From positions 1-64,000 of IMG/VR virus record IMGVR_UViG_3300017971_000250: DNA of 64,000 nt. The stretch is one strand, 5' to 3'. Shown here in pieces: positions 18,708-24,798 of the stretch (position 1 is its first letter; the number at the start of each line of letters is the position of its first letter). The notes below the pieces were generated by a model, which saw only the letters and a list, made by a program, of their open reading frames with translations, was not told the origin of the DNA and searched no databases. This DNA is from a virus. Both the position numbers and the translations under genes were made by a program.

Positions 18708-19040
18708 CTATCCTGTGCCACGCCCTCTTCCCATGAGCCGTCTCCGAACGTGGTCCCGGAGCGACTGGAGCGGTCTGAATCGAAACTCCAGCCCGGCCGG
18801 GACGACGCGGTTTCGGATGCGTCTCGACCCCGGACTAACCGGGACCCGCTGCACCCGCTCCTCGCGGGGCCGACCATAGAAGCGCCCGAACCGAGGTATC
18901 ATCACCTGGCGTCCCGTCAGGACCGCCTCGGTGATTTGCTTGAAGAGCGCCCGCGCCTCATCGGGTTCGACTCCAGCGTCCTCACATAGCTGCGCGAACG
19001 AATAGAGCTTCAGCGATGAGACCTTTCTCGAACGTGGCAT
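18708..19040 (-). CDS. HU/IHF-like DNA-binding protein
   Basis: GRQVMIPRFGRF...VPAG..FRFRP..SLR arm motif. Confidence 0.85.
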   Translation of the reverse strand: MPRSRKVSSLKLYSFAQLCEDAGVEPDEARALFKQITEAVLTGRQVMIPRFGRFYGRPREERVQRVPVSPGSRRIRNRVVPAGLEFRFRPLQSLRDHVRRRLMGRGRGTG

Positions 19041-19075
19041 CCTTCTGCCTCCTTCCCTATGTGCGGCCGCTGTCC

Positions 19076-22000
19076 CTACTGGCGCACCTGATCAAACTGG
19101 ATCGGGCAAACTTCGTCGGCAATGCAGATCGCCTCCGCCGCCGTCCAATCCGGCTCCTTCGCGGAATCCACAAGCGCCTGCGAGACTTCGATTTGCCAGC
19201 CGCGCTTGCCGATGCGCGACCACACCTTGGAGAAGTTATCGTGCAGCCATTTCTCATTCGGAACGAGCGCGCGCAACGCGCCCGCCTTCAGGAGCGCCAG
19301 CGCGACGCCACGATGGCAGCGCCGCCGATCGACGCGCTCCGCGAAGTCAACGAAGTCCTGATATGGCTGCGTCTTCACAATCGCGCCGACCGCAGCCGGA
19401 CCGACGCCTTTGATCGTGATCAGGCCCGCAACGATGTCCCGCTTATCGAGCCCCCACGTCCGGCCCGCGAGGTTCACGTCGGGCGGCAGGACGCGCACTC
19501 GCAGTCGTCGCGCCTCGCCCACAAAACGGTTTCGTGCCTCCTCCCCGGGAGTGTGGGTCAGCAGCGCCCACACGAATTCCGTGGGGAAGTAGGTCTTCAA
19601 GTACATCTCCCGGTAGGCGATCAGGCCGTAGGCGGTCGCGTGGCTGTTATGGCTTACGATTCCGTTCGAGAGGGCAAAGAGGTGGGGCGAATCGACTTCG
19701 AGGTCAACCATCGGCCTCGGTCCCAGGGAACGAATCGATACAAGTCGCCGATACAGATAAGGCCCGGCTGCGGATTCCGGATCGCGCTGAGGACCAGATC
19801 GCGACACCACTCCCGCAAATGACCGCCCGTTGTGAAACAATCCAAAGAAATCCGGACCATCGCAAACATCCGCCGGGCCGCCTCCTGATTGAGCATCGCA
19901 TCGCGTTCCAAAACCAGTACCAATCGCTCCTCCCCAAAAATCGGACGAAAGTGATGCAGCCCATCCACCTCGATCCATTCTCCCGGCAAGACGAAATCGA
20001 CCTGTCTCCTTTTCAACCCACATCGCACCTGCGCGTCTCGTCTCGCACCCGGAACTAGATCTGCAATACATTCCTCCAAACGAGACCTTGTACGACGACG
20101 CGACCCGGCCGCCGACATTGCCCGACCTCGCGCAAGAATCGCGGCGATCTTCTCGGGATTCCTGCACCGCCATTCGCGGAGGACTTTCGAACGCCGCTCC
20201 TGAATGTCCGCACGAGCCGAAGTCTTCTTCGCGGTTTCGGATCGAATCCGCTGAAAGCGCTCTCGATACTGATAGCACACCCTCTTCAACGTCTCGGACC
20301 GAATCCGACGACGCACCCCAGGAAACTTCGAGCAAGTCCGAGAATGATTCCATTTCTCCGCTCTGGTTCGAAAAACGAGATCGCAGCACGTCGCCCGCCA
20401 TCCCCCGGGACGTGCTCGGAATGGCCGCCCACGCAACCGCCGCTTTGAAATCAACGACCTGCCGAAGCGACAGGATTCCCTTGTTTGTGAGGAACCGATG
20501 CCCGATCGAACACGTGACTTTCGAACCATCATCGAAGGTTGCCTCCAGTGCCTCAACAAACCCATGGTCATGAACCGCACGAACCGACGCCGGGCGTGCC
20601 CCCCGAGGCCCGCAGACATAGACAAGATCCCCTTGCCGGATTTCGCCCGCAGGTTTCTCTCCATCTGCAGTAGCAACACCCTGTGCGATGTCAACCGATT
20701 TATTGAAGATGTAAGCTCCCGCGTGCATCATCGCCTCGGCCAGGCCCTCCGCCTCCCGCTTCTGCATCCCGCGCGATATCGCGCCATCGACGAATGGCCG
20801 GAGCGCCTTCTTGACCGCCGCCTTGCCGTGCTTCTTACCGACCATCTTGCGGACCTTGTCGGCGTCCTCCGGGGTGTAACCACCTAGCTCGCGCAGCAAT
20901 CGGATCATGTGTTCCTGGTAGATAATCGCGCCCCGGCTCTCACGGCAGATCGATGCCACTATCGGATGCGTCCCCTTTGCCGCCCGGACGCCGATTCGTT
21001 TTCGCTTCCGATAGGTGTCCGAAAGACCGCTGTGCGACACGCCGGGTCGCCCGAGCGCGTTCAGGATAGCGACCTCCTCGAAGCTCTCGAACTTGAGCCC
21101 CTCGCAGAGCCGGTGCGCGAGCGGAGTGTCTAGCTGAAAAATCCCCGCGAGGTTGCGCCGCGTGAACCCCACCAGCACCTTCGGATCGTTCAGACTGATC
21201 GCAGTCAGGTCGGGCGCTCGCTTGCCTCGCCGCTCGATCGCCTCCAGGGCGTCACGGATCACCTTCAGGTTGTGGAGCCCGAGGATGTCCAGCTTGACGA
21301 GCCCGAGCGCCTCGACGCCGTGCATATCGAGCGCCGTGACCGGGACGCGCTCGCCGTTGCTCTCGCGCGACTCCAGGGGGCAAACGTCGACGATCGGCTC
21401 GGGGGAGATCACGACGCCCGCAGGATGAACCGTGAGCGCCTTCGTCGAACCCTCCAGCTTCAGCGCCGTCTCGACGACGGGCGGATACTTCTGTGCGAAC
21501 TTCCTGCAAGCCGCCTCATTCTCAAACGGCCCCTTGAGCCCGCCCTCGTCTATCTCGGTCTGCGTGATGTACTTCTCCGGGATGAGCGGGATCAATTCCT
21601 CGATCTCCCGAATCGGAACCTGGAAAACGCGCCCGACGTCTTTCAGGCACTGCCGCCCGCGCATCGTCGAGCGCGCCGAGATGCGAGCGAAGTGATCGGC
21701 CCCGTAGACCGCCTGCAGATGCGCCAGCACCTCGTCGCGCTGGTCGCTGGCAAAATCACAGTCGATGTCCGGCAGATCGCTGTTTGAAACAAGAATGCCA
21801 CCAGCGAAGTATTCATGCTGGCCCTCTACCGAGAGGTCATAGACGGGACCGGAGAGAACGATTCGTCTGATGCTCGTGATCGTCGCTCGCGCCAGCGAGC
21901 CCATCGCAGCTTGTTCGCGCAACTCAGCGAGCAACATTCCTGACTCCTGGTCACGGGGGCGCGGAACATCGCTCCACACCACACACATGCACGATCGATC

Positions 22001-24274
22001 ATCTTGAACCCGGCATATTTGATGCGTCTGGACGTTTCCACAAGGACATCCGTCAATCCCGCCCCCCTGATACTCCTGACAAAATCGTCCTGATAGAGCA
22101 CCCGTAGGCGATCGCCAAGAAGCCGCTTCGCCAAGATCAGCTTGCGTCCATCCTGACCACGCCATCCCTTCAATTCGTAGAAGAGATCCTCCTGTGGGAG
22201 ATAGAAGTCGGGGCAATACGTCGTCCCGTCTGCCAACCGAAACCGCTCCGCCTCGTATCGGTAGTCCATGCCCATCCGGCGCAACAAACGCGCGAAGTCC
22301 GCCTCCAGCCCTGAACGCACGAAATGGCCCAGGTCGGGACGGTATCCGGCCCGCCCCCGCGAATGCGTTCTTGTTCCTTGCAAAGCCCGCCCACACTTCC
22401 GGGAGCACGCCTTCTGCCGCTTCCCGCCCTTGAATTCCATTCCACAAACACAACACTGTCGATGGTGACTCCGAACAACCGCAAGGTAACGACATCGCTC
22501 GCTGCAATAGATTTGATTCCCAGTCCTGCGACGAAATACTCGGTCGCACCAAGGACATTCCGTTTCGCTCCCCACCTTCACCCACACGGGAGGACGGCTG
22601 CGTTTCGCCGGAGGAATCATCATCGAACGGGTATGGCATCTCCGACTGCAATACTTTCTCTTCTGCGACGGATAGGCCCTGATTGCCATCCCGCAAACAG
22701 GACAGTAGCTCGTCACCAACTTCGAGCTTACAGGCCGCCGCCTTCTCGTACCCTTCTTTGCGCCTGCCTCGCCTGAAGATTCTGTGCCCATAAGTACAGC
22801 GTACTAGAAAAGGCTTTCCGTCGCTAGTCGTTCCTTCGATTTTCACCCCCGGCTCTTTGCCCCACCGCGCATGGCGTGCCAGAACCCGCCGCAAGCCCAT
22901 CCGCGTCCAAACCATCATCCCCGGCCGGACGTCATGGATCGGAAGTGCCCCCACAGAAGTCGACACCAGCGTCTCCCCGGGAAAACACCGCCCGGGAGCG
23001 AGGAAGCGCTCGAACATGAGCCCGTGCCGGATCGGATCGATCTGCGTGATCCCGAGCAGGTAGGCGACCAGGCTGCCACCAACCGAACCGCGCCCCGGCC
23101 CGACCATGATCCCTTCCTGCTTCGCCCAGTCGTAAAGCTCTTTGACCGCGAGGAAGTAGTCGACGACGCCACGCTCTTCGATTGTCGCTAGCTCGTGATT
23201 GAGACGGGTCTCGTATTTGTCGTCCGCCCCATGAAGCAATCCACCGTTCGAGAGATACGCCAGCGCCAACAGGCAGCTTTCCTGTAGATAATCGGCGTGC
23301 GTATGGCCGACCAAGACCTTGATCGGCGGCACGACGGGATCCCGGCGCGGTAGCTCGCTCAGCGCCGCGCACCGTTCGGAGACCTCCCTCGTGCGCAGGA
23401 CAGCCCCGTCCGTAAAGGTCGCCCGCAGCCGGGGATGATTCGCCCTGAACGCCCGGACCATTTCGTCCTGGCTTCGCAGATGATACTCGCGCGTCTTGAG
23501 CCGGAACCTGGTCGGGCTCAGTAGGACGCCATGGGTATGAATCGCAAGCAGCGCTTCCTGGTAACGCCAGTCGTCCGCGTCAGGATAATGCGCGTCCTGT
23601 GTGGCGACCGCAGGAATGCCGAGCGCCTCGCCGATCTCGTAGAGCGCCTCGTTGGCGACCCGTAACTCGTCCAGGTCGTGCGGCATGATTTCCAGATAGA
23701 AGCGGTCGCCGAGCCGCTCCTGGAATTCCTCCGCGAGCGCGATCGCGTCCGAAGTCCGTCCCTGGTTCACCGCCAGCGAAACCGGCCCGACCATGCAACC
23801 GCTCAGAACGATCAGGCCCTCGGAGTGTTTCCAGAACGTCGGCAGGTCCACGCACGGCCGCCAGTGAAATCCCTCCAGCCAGGCGATCGAAGTTAGCCGG
23901 TAGAGATTGCGGAGCCCGGTTTCGTTCATGGCCAGGAGCGTCAGGTGCTGTCTGGTGAGTCCGCGCCGCTCCTCTTCAGCCTTCAGGATTTCGCGCCGCC
24001 TCCGGTACGGGGTCCCTTTGGTGATCTCTTTGATCTCTTCCTTCGAGAACCCGCGCCACGCCATGTCCTCGATCACATAAAGCTCGACGCCGAAGATCGG
24101 CCGGATGCCGAGACGCTGCGCCGCCTTGTCGAAGTCGTGAATCCCGCGCAGCGTGCCGTGCTCCGTAGTCGCGATCGCGTCGTGACGCATTTCGAGCGCC
24201 CGCTTGATGAACGCGGCAGGCTTCCTGAAACCGTCGAATCCCGTGTGATCGGTGTGAACGTGAAGATGAATCAT
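19076..24274 (-). CDS. dnaE: DNA polymerase III alpha subunit (PHP + Pol) with two inteins
   Basis: HLHVHT PHP start (ATGA-coupled at 24274), GPGRGS, FERFL, PDIDCD, HPAGVVI, KLDILG, YQE, FNK|SHA, PPDVN, IKGVG. Confidence 0.96.
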   Translation of the reverse strand: MIHLHVHTDHTGFDGFRKPAAFIKRALEMRHDAIATTEHGTLRGIHDFDKAAQRLGIRPIFGVELYVIEDMAWRGFSKEEIKEITKGTPYRRRREILKAEEERRGLTRQHLTLLAMNETGLRNLYRLTSIAWLEGFHWRPCVDLPTFWKHSEGLIVLSGCMVGPVSLAVNQGRTSDAIALAEEFQERLGDRFYLEIMPHDLDELRVANEALYEIGEALGIPAVATQDAHYPDADDWRYQEALLAIHTHGVLLSPTRFRLKTREYHLRSQDEMVRAFRANHPRLRATFTDGAVLRTREVSERCAALSELPRRDPVVPPIKVLVGHTHADYLQESCLLALAYLSNGGLLHGADDKYETRLNHELATIEERGVVDYFLAVKELYDWAKQEGIMVGPGRGSVGGSLVAYLLGITQIDPIRHGLMFERFLAPGRCFPGETLVSTSVGALPIHDVRPGMMVWTRMGLRRVLARHARWGKEPGVKIEGTTSDGKPFLVRCTYGHRIFRRGRRKEGYEKAAACKLEVGDELLSCLRDGNQGLSVAEEKVLQSEMPYPFDDDSSGETQPSSRVGEGGERNGMSLVRPSISSQDWESNLLQRAMSLPCGCSESPSTVLCLWNGIQGREAAEGVLPEVWAGFARNKNAFAGAGRIPSRPGPFRAFRAGGGLRAFVAPDGHGLPIRGGAVSVGRRDDVLPRLLSPTGGSLLRIEGMAWSGWTQADLGEAASWRSPTGALSGRFCQEYQGGGIDGCPCGNVQTHQICRVQDDRSCMCVVWSDVPRPRDQESGMLLAELREQAAMGSLARATITSIRRIVLSGPVYDLSVEGQHEYFAGGILVSNSDLPDIDCDFASDQRDEVLAHLQAVYGADHFARISARSTMRGRQCLKDVGRVFQVPIREIEELIPLIPEKYITQTEIDEGGLKGPFENEAACRKFAQKYPPVVETALKLEGSTKALTVHPAGVVISPEPIVDVCPLESRESNGERVPVTALDMHGVEALGLVKLDILGLHNLKVIRDALEAIERRGKRAPDLTAISLNDPKVLVGFTRRNLAGIFQLDTPLAHRLCEGLKFESFEEVAILNALGRPGVSHSGLSDTYRKRKRIGVRAAKGTHPIVASICRESRGAIIYQEHMIRLLRELGGYTPEDADKVRKMVGKKHGKAAVKKALRPFVDGAISRGMQKREAEGLAEAMMHAGAYIFNKSVDIAQGVATADGEKPAGEIRQGDLVYVCGPRGARPASVRAVHDHGFVEALEATFDDGSKVTCSIGHRFLTNKGILSLRQVVDFKAAVAWAAIPSTSRGMAGDVLRSRFSNQSGEMESFSDLLEVSWGASSDSVRDVEEGVLSVSRALSADSIRNREEDFGSCGHSGAAFESPPRMAVQESREDRRDSCARSGNVGGRVASSYKVSFGGMYCRSSSGCETRRAGAMWVEKETGRFRLAGRMDRGGWAASLSSDFWGGAIGTGFGTRCDAQSGGGPADVCDGPDFFGLFHNGRSFAGVVSRSGPQRDPESAAGPYLYRRLVSIRSLGPRPMVDLEVDSPHLFALSNGIVSHNSHATAYGLIAYREMYLKTYFPTEFVWALLTHTPGEEARNRFVGEARRLRVRVLPPDVNLAGRTWGLDKRDIVAGLITIKGVGPAAVGAIVKTQPYQDFVDFAERVDRRRCHRGVALALLKAGALRALVPNEKWLHDNFSKVWSRIGKRGWQIEVSQALVDSAKEPDWTAAEAICIADEVCPIQFDQVRQ
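19646..20698 (-). mobile_element. DnaE intein 2 (351 aa), inserted at YIFNK|SHATAY
   Basis: Starts with Ser (SVDIAQGV); block B TCSIGHRFLT; ends MVDLEVDSPHLFALSNGIVSHN followed by Ser. Confidence 0.92.
19654..20532 (-). CDS. Vsr/DUF559-like endonuclease in the +1 frame inside intein 2
   Basis: SRLE...QVDFVLPGEWIEVDGLHHF...RDAMLN...MVRI. GGAGG (20542-20546) lies 9 nt before ATG 20532. The frame is open from 20694. Confidence 0.83.
   Translation of the reverse strand: MMVRKSRVRSGIGSSQTRESCRFGRSLISKRRLRGRPFRARPGGWRATCCDLVFRTRAEKWNHSRTCSKFPGVRRRIRSETLKRVCYQYRERFQRIRSETAKKTSARADIQERRSKVLREWRCRNPEKIAAILARGRAMSAAGSRRRTRSRLEECIADLVPGARRDAQVRCGLKRRQVDFVLPGEWIEVDGLHHFRPIFGEERLVLVLERDAMLNQEAARRMFAMVRISLDCFTTGGHLREWCRDLVLSAIRNPQPGLICIGDLYRFVPWDRGRWLTSKSIRPTSLPSRTES
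21782..22987 (-). mobile_element. DnaE intein 1 (402 aa), inserted at FLAPGR|SDLPDID
   Basis: Starts CFPGETLV; block B CTYGHRIF; LEVGD; ends VYDLSVEGQHEYFAGGILVSN followed by Ser. Removing it restores the DnaE catalytic region. Confidence 0.93.
21826..22791 (-). CDS. Zn-finger + PD-(D/E)XK endonuclease in the +1 frame inside intein 1
   Basis: Four CxxC...CSxxC modules; RSGLEADFARLL...YRYE...YCPDFYL...FYELKG. Offset (24274-22791) mod 3 = 1. Start uncertain: ATG 22791, TTG 22719 or GTG 22716. Confidence 0.85.
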   Translation of the reverse strand: MGTESSGEAGAKKGTRRRRPVSSKLVTSYCPVCGMAIRAYPSQKRKYCSRRCHTRSMMIPPAKRSRPPVWVKVGSETECPWCDRVFRRRTGNQIYCSERCRYLAVVRSHHRQCCVCGMEFKGGKRQKACSRKCGRALQGTRTHSRGRAGYRPDLGHFVRSGLEADFARLLRRMGMDYRYEAERFRLADGTTYCPDFYLPQEDLFYELKGWRGQDGRKLILAKRLLGDRLRVLYQDDFVRSIRGAGLTDVLVETSRRIKYAGFKMIDRACVWCGAMFRAPVTRSQECCSLSCANKLRWARWRERRSRASDESFSPVPSMTSR

Positions 24275-24798
24275 GGCGTCTGTGTTCCTATGTGACCGAG
24301 AGGCACCACGCGCATCTTGAGCTTGCCGCTCGGAGATCGCGGGGCGGTGTGGTTCAACCACGCCTCGACGATATCGCGTAGCTCGGCGGGAAAGGTCTCG
24401 GTCAGCATCCACTCCAGATAGCCGCGCCCTTCCTGTGGATCACTCGCTAGCTCTGAAACGCTGTGCCCCGCATGGCGACCGAATTGGAGAATCGCATCAG
24501 TCGGCACACCCCCGAGCGTCGACGGCACAATCGCATAGTTTGCCCGGGGACGCTGCTTCCCGCGCGATCCGGGAACCTTACTCTCTCTCATCGCTGAAAG
24601 GTCCACGGCGCGATTCGGTGTCTTCACAACCCGGTCACCTTCCTGCCCGCCCATCCCCTCGATCAGATCCTTGAGTTGGGCTTCCGAATCCTTCTCGTCC
24701 GCCGTTGCTCCTGGAACCGCGTCGTCGCCGCCTTCGTCCTTCTTCTTGGGGAGGAACTTGCGGCGCATCTCGTCGAGTGATTTGCCTTCAGCGCTCAT
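24271..24798 (-). CDS. hypothetical protein with C-terminal FG(K/R)H..G...YLxW (DUF3820/ExoX C-terminal-like) motif
   Basis: LQFGRHAGHSVSELA...GYLEWML; start MSAEGKSLDEMRRKFLPK. Confidence 0.65.
   Translation of the reverse strand: MSAEGKSLDEMRRKFLPKKKDEGGDDAVPGATADEKDSEAQLKDLIEGMGGQEGDRVVKTPNRAVDLSAMRESKVPGSRGKQRPRANYAIVPSTLGGVPTDAILQFGRHAGHSVSELASDPQEGRGYLEWMLTETFPAELRDIVEAWLNHTAPRSPSGKLKMRVVPLGHIGTQTP

Follow-up and report, generated by a model that had tools for sequence, protein, structure and literature searches.

According to two recent studies that cite the work (10.1101/2025.01.02.630785; 10.64898/2026.09.14.751524), Gorbalenya described in 1998 endonuclease genes that lie out of frame or antisense within contiguous inteins. 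In actinobacteriophages, the inteins of terminase, polymerase, capsid and ThyX genes contain antisense LAGLIDADG, antisense VSR-like and frame-3 endonuclease VII-like open reading frames (ORFs) (Gosselin, Arsenault & Gogarten, 10.1101/2025.01.02.630785), and a cyanobacterial dnaX intein contains a +2 LAGLIDADG ORF with frame-specific dN/dS (Phillips, DeSimone & Gogarten, 10.64898/2026.09.14.751524). The invasion of a mini-intein by a free-standing endonuclease gene has also been proposed already (Dassa 2009, PMC2677866; Gosselin et al., 10.1101/2025.01.02.630785), although the model of Dassa 2009 (PMC2677866) has no out-of-frame contiguous state; the fractured genes described there are hosts broken in two, whose products are joined by trans splicing. 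The gene of I-Bth0305I, the prototype of the EDxHD homing endonucleases, lies in a group I intron within phage recA (Taylor et al. 2011, PMC3239194; PDB 3r3p). In this paper, we describe an intein of the DNA polymerase III alpha gene (dnaE) of an uncultured phage, together with the nuclease gene that lies within it. The stretch of DNA analysed, hereafter the window, comprises 64,000 nucleotides, namely positions 1 to 64,000 of the viral record IMGVR_UViG_3300017971_000250 (84.9 kb), and the genome has a GC content of 63%. The dnaE gene of the window holds two inteins, of which the second, intein 2, is our main subject.

Intein 2 is very probably a contiguous mini-intein at the FNK/SHA site of dnaE, with a complete Vsr-like (EDxHD) homing endonuclease gene overprinted in its +1 frame, which would be translated separately from the same mRNA and would home together with the intein as one composite. 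The general kind of layout has already been described, and the window case is its Vsr-like, sense-strand +1, dnaE version. As in the reported non-canonical inteins, the splicing blocks stand in the host frame, the nuclease ORF lies between these blocks in another frame, the host frame is free of stops, and sequence conservation follows the frame of the nuclease. Unlike in those inteins, the nuclease is Vsr-like, encoded on the sense strand and always in +1, the site is FNK/SH of dnaE, the 3' end of the nuclease gene is overprinted on blocks F and G, and the layout occurs in uncultured phages as well as in bacterial chromosomes; in addition, the window dnaE presents two such cases with two nuclease families. 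With the fractured genes (Dassa 2009, PMC2677866) the locus shares the nuclease family, the phage dnaE host and the overlap, by tens of bases, of the nuclease 3' end with the start of the C-intein, but the window host frame is continuous across the nuclease gene. A host broken into two ORFs with one intein half each, as in a split gene, is thus not what is found here. Like I-Bth0305I, the nuclease has a Vsr-like catalytic fold, with DNA binding assigned to the N-terminal part and the nuclease domain at the C-terminus, and its conserved E, D, H and D residues are putative counterparts of those of I-Bth0305I; its gene, however, lies inside an intein and not in a group I intron. As is characteristic of the EDxHD family, its relatives occur inside contiguous inteins or between the split-intein halves of dnaE. 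Escherichia coli Vsr (1cw0, 1vsr) is the best structural match, but it is a repair nickase without a zinc-finger or helical N-terminal region. A full-text search, in which subscription journals were mostly not covered, turned up neither a contiguous dnaE intein with a Vsr-like gene in +1 on the sense strand nor an allelic series of contiguous, fractured and degraded forms.

All window features described below lie on the minus strand. The phage dnaE gene (19076-24412) is a single open frame of 1778 codons with both inteins inside, and Pfam recognizes PHP, DNA_pol3_alpha, finger and HHH_6 domains in its product. Intein 2 (19646-20698; 351 aa) interrupts the conserved motif YIFNK/SHATAY and extends from Ser1 (TCG, 20698-20696), directly after YIFNK, to His350-Asn351 (AAC, ending at 19646), which are followed by Ser+1. 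An earlier sequence-only reading had placed an intein with S...HN/S ends and a +1 ORF at 20694-19654 within these limits, and all of its coordinates proved correct. Among 14 allelic inteins, H67 and N351 are invariant, and the S64xxH67 and H350-N351/S motifs are all present in intein 2. The N-terminal nucleophile of the allelic inteins is S, T or C; Thr, in place of Cys or Ser, was observed as residue 1 at L013, L020, L022, L023 and L025 and at the bacterial loci L040-L044 and L048. An AlphaFold2 model of frame 0, built on an alignment of 13 allelic inteins, reaches pLDDT >90 at residues 1-96, the N-terminal splicing domain (20411-20698), which includes block B S64-I-G-H67, and at residues 312-351, the C-terminal splicing domain (19646-19765), which comprises blocks F and G (...VDLEV...NGIVSHN). 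The 215 residues between them (97-311; 19766-20410) are kept open, yet they are unconserved across the allelic inteins and predicted to be disordered, with pLDDT <50 and no secondary structure, as expected of the filler that had been claimed here. In Foldseek comparisons the frame-0 fold matches known mini-inteins, namely Ssp DnaB (E 7e-6) as well as Ssp DnaE, gp41-1 and Npu DnaE (E up to 1e-4), while the Pfam models Intein_splicing and Hint_2 match below the cut-off only. By its predicted structure, frame 0 of intein 2 is a mini-intein with a HINT fold, whose two halves are joined by a 215-residue linker. It would splice out of the polymerase precursor, since dnaE would otherwise be disrupted.

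The +1 frame of intein 2 is open from 20694 to 19654, a length of 346 codons including the stop TAA at 19656-19654, which lies 8 nt ahead of the intein end; counted from ATG 20532, the ORF has 292 codons. It sits in the loop in which the endonuclease domain of an intein normally lies. The motifs SRLE, VDFV, IEVDGLHHF and RD, which the sequence-only reading had listed, are all present in its product. According to a model of the 292-aa product, a zinc-finger-like motif (20323-20388; C49/C50...H63...C67, numbered from ATG 20532) is followed by ~90 residues of helices and then by an alpha/beta nuclease domain of Vsr-like (EDxHD) type (19708-20085; residues ~150-275), with pLDDT >90 at residues 45-275 and <50 at residues 1-34 and 280-292. 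The best fold matches are to Vsr (1cw0_A, Z 11.1, rmsd 4.2, 133 residues aligned; 1vsr, Z 10.3), followed by the catalytic domain of I-Bth0305I (3r3p, Z 9.0, rmsd 2.8, 91 of 97 residues) and the DUF559-like 3hrl (Z 7.9); apart from the latter and from mitoribosomal RAP-like proteins, unrelated structures score Z <=6. In the alignment of 36 relatives nine residues are invariant, and the window copy keeps every one of them (D179, E188, D190, G191, H194, F195, D211, R227, G262). They include the putative catalytic set E188, D190, H194 and D211 (with D179), so assigned from their invariance. At the sequence level the resemblance fades: the best E value in PHROGs is only ~0.03, and the nuclease profile matches among the PDB sequences a single, spurious TPR-like entry, I-Bth0305I giving no match. 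Predicted fold and invariant residues together support the view that the +1 frame of intein 2 encodes a real Vsr-like nuclease. The folded nuclease (19708-20400) fills the frame-0 filler almost exactly, and only at 19657-19765 is the nuclease end, consisting of the end of the fold and a disordered tail (...WLTSKSIRPTSLPSRTES), overprinted on blocks F and G. This tail is the +1 reading of the intein segment VDLEV...HxF and is conserved in the family. Structured double coding takes up no more than ~20 codons, on the 3' side, and true double coding is restricted to the two ends of the intein.

Neither open frame is readily explained by chance. The other genes of the window have +1-frame stops at a rate of 0.034 per codon, and 346 open codons have an expectation of ~7e-6. 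Conversely, when the nuclease protein was held fixed and its synonymous codons were resampled with the phage's own usage, frame 0 stayed free of stops in 0.3% of the resamplings for intein 2 (P ~0.003) and in 0.04% for intein 1. The sister locus L003 belongs to another phage (53% GC), whose dnaE contains a single intein, inserted at the same position; its nuclease is likewise in +1, and none of 3000 resamplings left frame 0 open. Across 15 viral loci with GC contents of 35-61%, the probability of an open frame 0, computed for each from the off-frame stop rate of its own extein, ranges from 10^-2.4 to 10^-21.6. GC by codon position, which is a strong coding signal in this genome, takes up the +1 phase in the central part of each of the two inteins. 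When the window is compared with L003, the central part of the intein shows 53-57% identity in +1 against 13-26% in frame 0, whereas at the intein ends the pattern is reversed, frame 0 being 33-47% identical. These patterns indicate that selection on two frames maintains the layout, acting on protein sequence in +1 and on freedom from stops in frame 0. The sequence-only reading had seen in the mini-intein a neutral safe harbour for an invading gene; the word neutral has to be abandoned, as strong selection keeps stops out of frame 0.

In the mechanism that we propose, the polymerase precursor would be read straight through in frame 0, and the 215 codons over the nuclease gene would yield a disordered linker. 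The two HINT halves would then fold and splice the insert out. The nuclease would be made separately from the same mRNA by internal initiation, most likely at ATG 20532 behind GGAGG, and, judging from its family, it would cut the intein-less dnaE of co-infecting relatives near FNK/SHA, whereupon recombinational repair would copy the entire composite of intein and nuclease gene. Internal initiation is the most economical route of expression, and it fits the family. The signal at this start had been pointed out from the sequence and exists as described: a Shine-Dalgarno-like GGAGG (20542-20546), lying in the frame-0 codons CTG GAG GCA, precedes by 9 nt a tandem ATG ATG (20527-20532), which lies in GAT GAT G of FDDG, so that the whole signal is contained in the codons for LEATFDDG. 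Upstream of the conserved region there are 15 in-frame ATG, GTG or TTG candidates, and GGAGG stands only before 20532 and, at 12 nt, before 20529. L003 has the same ATGATG inside FDDG, with GGAG 4 and 7 nt upstream, and other relatives have GGAGGT, AGGAG or TAAGGAG with ATG or GTG at 7-15 codons ahead of the first zinc finger. Of 200 shuffles, 188 are more structured than the RNA around 20532 (z +1.49), whose predicted fold shows no significant structure. The codon pair GATGAT was also considered as evidence for a selected ATGATG and was dropped, GAT making up 31% of Asp codons and being preferred by the intein; low-GC relatives carry ATGATG followed by stops.

Several observations weigh against an active, separately translated nuclease with this start. 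Pfam (E<=0.1) and NCBIfam, with the Vsr and DUF559 (PF04480) models included, give no match to the +1 product. Three of the 36 relatives match DUF559 in Pfam (E down to 4.7e-5), but the window protein does not, and therefore the label DUF559-like rests on fold and motif and not on Pfam membership; of the earlier assignment to a Vsr/DUF559-like family, the Vsr-like fold is what stands. The window nuclease has one zinc finger, whereas close relatives have two, and in the family pattern C-x12-H-x3-C-x2-C it has Phe in place of the last Cys. Shine-Dalgarno-like motifs of at least 5 nt precede ~11% of the +1-frame start codons in the genes of the window, and with 15 candidates one combination of motif and start is therefore expected by chance. 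Translation from ATG 20532 would begin with 34 residues that show no conservation and are predicted to be disordered, without a fold, and the position of this start differs from that used by most relatives. The listing of public runs searched for the window sequence contained no RNA run, and the nearest relatives are only 39-44% identical, so that purifying selection on the window copy is not measurable. Such points could be taken to mean that the +1 gene is a silent or decaying relic within a mini-intein with a long linker, its frame being still open owing only to a recent invasion. The reduced and altered zinc-finger region would agree with a relic, as would the want of statistical support for the ribosome-binding site, the failure of a search of 19400-21200 to find a sigma-70-like promoter, and the clear decay products known from the same site elsewhere (L026 and L027, described below). 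We nevertheless consider a relic improbable: the +1 frame is intact over its full length against the small expectation given above, all nine invariant residues are kept, the fold is predicted with high confidence (pLDDT >90), and GC by codon position is still in the +1 phase.

A separately translated nuclease might also begin elsewhere, either at the upstream ATG 20571 or 20565 or at TTG 20454 or 20436, just ahead of the conserved PGGW and zinc-finger region. The TTG codons occupy the position that most relatives use, 7-15 codons ahead of the first zinc finger, and both the model and the conservation begin near residue 40. In the N-domain of intein 2, directly before TTG 20454, there is a GC-rich hairpin (CCTGTCG-CTT-CGGCAGG; 20458-20474) with a T-rich run behind it, and hairpins upstream of such endonuclease genes were reported by Dassa 2009 (PMC2677866). 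Terminator-like hairpins are, however, no commoner in the region than in shuffles (two found against 1.7 expected), none of the alternative starts has a Shine-Dalgarno-like motif, and TTG is a weak start codon. These starts are on balance rather unlikely to be the ones used. For ATG 20532 the chances are roughly even: with the only GGAGG among the 15 candidates it is the best start candidate, though not above background, for the internal initiation that the sequence-only reading proposed. As to the frame difference itself, it could be an artefact, assembly indels hiding an in-frame domain, or it could be bypassed by ribosomes that shift to +1 and back. Most canonical inteins have their endonuclease in frame, and two compensating shifts would restore that arrangement. 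The region 19000-24500 is, however, reproduced at ~14x with 0 differences and 0 gaps by an independent Logan assembly of two public runs, possibly a single data set and possibly the source sample itself; compensating assembly frameshifts are therefore not the explanation of the +1 layout. The same +1 offset recurs in more than 30 independent loci from many samples. An untranslated frame 0 would gain nothing from being kept free of stops, as it is at P down to 10^-21, and the nuclease ORF has its own stop inside block G. Both the artefact and the bypass are largely refuted, and we give them hardly any weight. A mini-intein with an overprinted, separately translated nuclease gene accordingly remains our preferred reading of intein 2.

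The first intein of the gene, intein 1 (21782-22987; 402 aa, C...VSN/S), also has a nuclease ORF in its +1 frame (21826-22791; 321 aa), in which zinc-ribbon repeats are followed by an endonuclease I-like PD-(D/E)xK domain. The product matches phrog_1271 (2.8e-21), phrog_9019 and phrog_945 (endonuclease or resolvase), and weakly Phage_endo_I of Pfam; its sole relative among database proteins carries PF05367, and a pattern scan found no close viral relative. The claim that two unrelated nucleases share the +1 arrangement in one gene is borne out, the two products having no similarity to each other (E 1.5). ATG 22791 of this ORF is the first start after a +1-frame stop and lies inside the block B codons TAT GGG; no Shine-Dalgarno-like motif stands ahead of it. 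A second contig of the same run or runs (18.3 kb, depth ~11) has matches to short conserved parts of dnaE that flank intein 1. Between these it has 530 letters against 1739 in the window (21341-23081), and the difference of 1209 nt is close to the length of intein 1 (1206 nt). From this length gap, a related dnaE without intein 1 may coexist in the sample.

An exhaustive profile search places the nuclease of intein 2 in a small family, with 293 clusters at E<=1e-3. Its nearest protein relatives, P0004 and P0005, share 43-44% identity with it and end in the same tail derived from blocks F and G; judging from these tails, both would be encoded within inteins. Of the 26 loci that a second viral scan yielded, 14 have the nuclease ORF inside a long host ORF, in the +1 frame of the latter, L010 and L012 being near-copies of L009 and L011; 12 distinct nested loci were counted, and those listed as distinct are L009, L011, L013-L020 and L022-L025 (GC 35-61%). 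Most of them are at YGFNK/...SN/SH of dnaE, and four are in unidentified host proteins. The sequence-only reading had called for a scan for further inteins of this layout, and they exist: +1 nesting was found at 15 loci of viruses and in 15 dnaE genes of bacteria, for the most part at the FNK/SH site, the bacterial genes belonging to metagenome-assembled genomes of Beggiatoa, Thiomargarita, Ca. Venteria, Thiothrix, Competibacteraceae, Methylococcaceae, Myxococcales and Omnitrophota. A tblastn search of GenBank phages with the nucleases of the window and of L018 gave no match, and two scans of metagenome contigs and a first scan of genome contigs gave no relatives. At L015 (4917-6062) block G lacks a stop in the +1 nuclease frame, which continues 46 nt beyond the intein end into the C-extein. 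The hosts of the composite at L009, L011, L014 and L019 are not dnaE and have no Pfam match besides the intein, which suggests moves of the composite to new host genes.

Two further states occur at the same dnaE site. Fractured dnaE genes are found at L004-L007, L021, L029 and L032, where an N-extein with the N-intein half, a free-standing Vsr-like gene, and a C-intein half with the C-extein follow one another. At L004 (1581-7725) dnaE is fractured twice, at GPARG/C, where an unrelated 323-aa endonuclease-like ORF lies between split-intein halves, and at FNK/SH, where the Vsr-like gene lies; identity of the intein 1 nuclease with this first endonuclease was ruled out (BLASTP E = 1.0). At L021 (3-2841) the nuclease frame is open from 854, with its first Met one codon in, and overlaps the end of the N-part, which is open to 857; this overlap would allow translational coupling. 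The C-part of L021 starts at an internal Met ~35 codons ahead of block F. The second state is represented by the mini-inteins L026 (4673-5242; 190 aa) and L027 (4652-5215; 188 aa), which retain 3' remnants of the +1 ORF of 46 and 89 codons, respectively, and look as though the composite had decayed there by deletion. A quick maximum-likelihood tree of 24 nucleases, rooted at the midpoint, unites the contiguous forms in one clade (SH-aLRT 100), in which the window pairs with L003 (98); the fractured L021 is nested in this clade (support 90), and the other seven fractured forms are its sister clade. The overprinted tail is part of the pattern by which the loci in this tree were sampled, and this favours the +1 arrangement. 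Given the invariable +1 phase, the common tail overprinted on blocks F and G and the single clade of contiguous forms, the layout in the Vsr-like family looks to have been inherited mostly as one composite element, and repeated independent invasions are not needed. The idea of a recurrent strategy of out-of-frame invasion may hold for the two nuclease families of the window, but within the Vsr-like family descent of one composite is the better account, and the idea itself is already published (PMC2677866; 10.1101/2025.01.02.630785). Since L021 is fractured and yet falls inside the contiguous clade, and since mini-intein remnants exist at the same site, we tentatively suggest, at somewhat less than an even chance, that the contiguous intein with its +1 Vsr-like gene is one old composite mobile element, spread over phage and bacterial dnaE and a few other genes, and that it is the missing intermediate which gives rise to fractured genes of the Dassa type, and hence to natural split inteins, once frame 0 gains a stop.

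The locus offers a case of dual coding with measurable selection, in which one frame needs only to avoid stops and a protein sequence is maintained in the other. At such loci a gene caller will give the polymerase or else the nuclease, so that nucleases of this kind are easily missed or dismissed as spurious ORFs. A mini-intein that presumably splices across a disordered linker of 215 residues is also of some engineering interest. Two composites with unrelated nucleases in one essential gene mean that this route has been taken at least twice. Finally, the occurrence of contiguous, fractured and degraded alleles at one dnaE site links the work on non-canonical inteins with that on fractured genes and split inteins, and provides a way to test the origin of split inteins.

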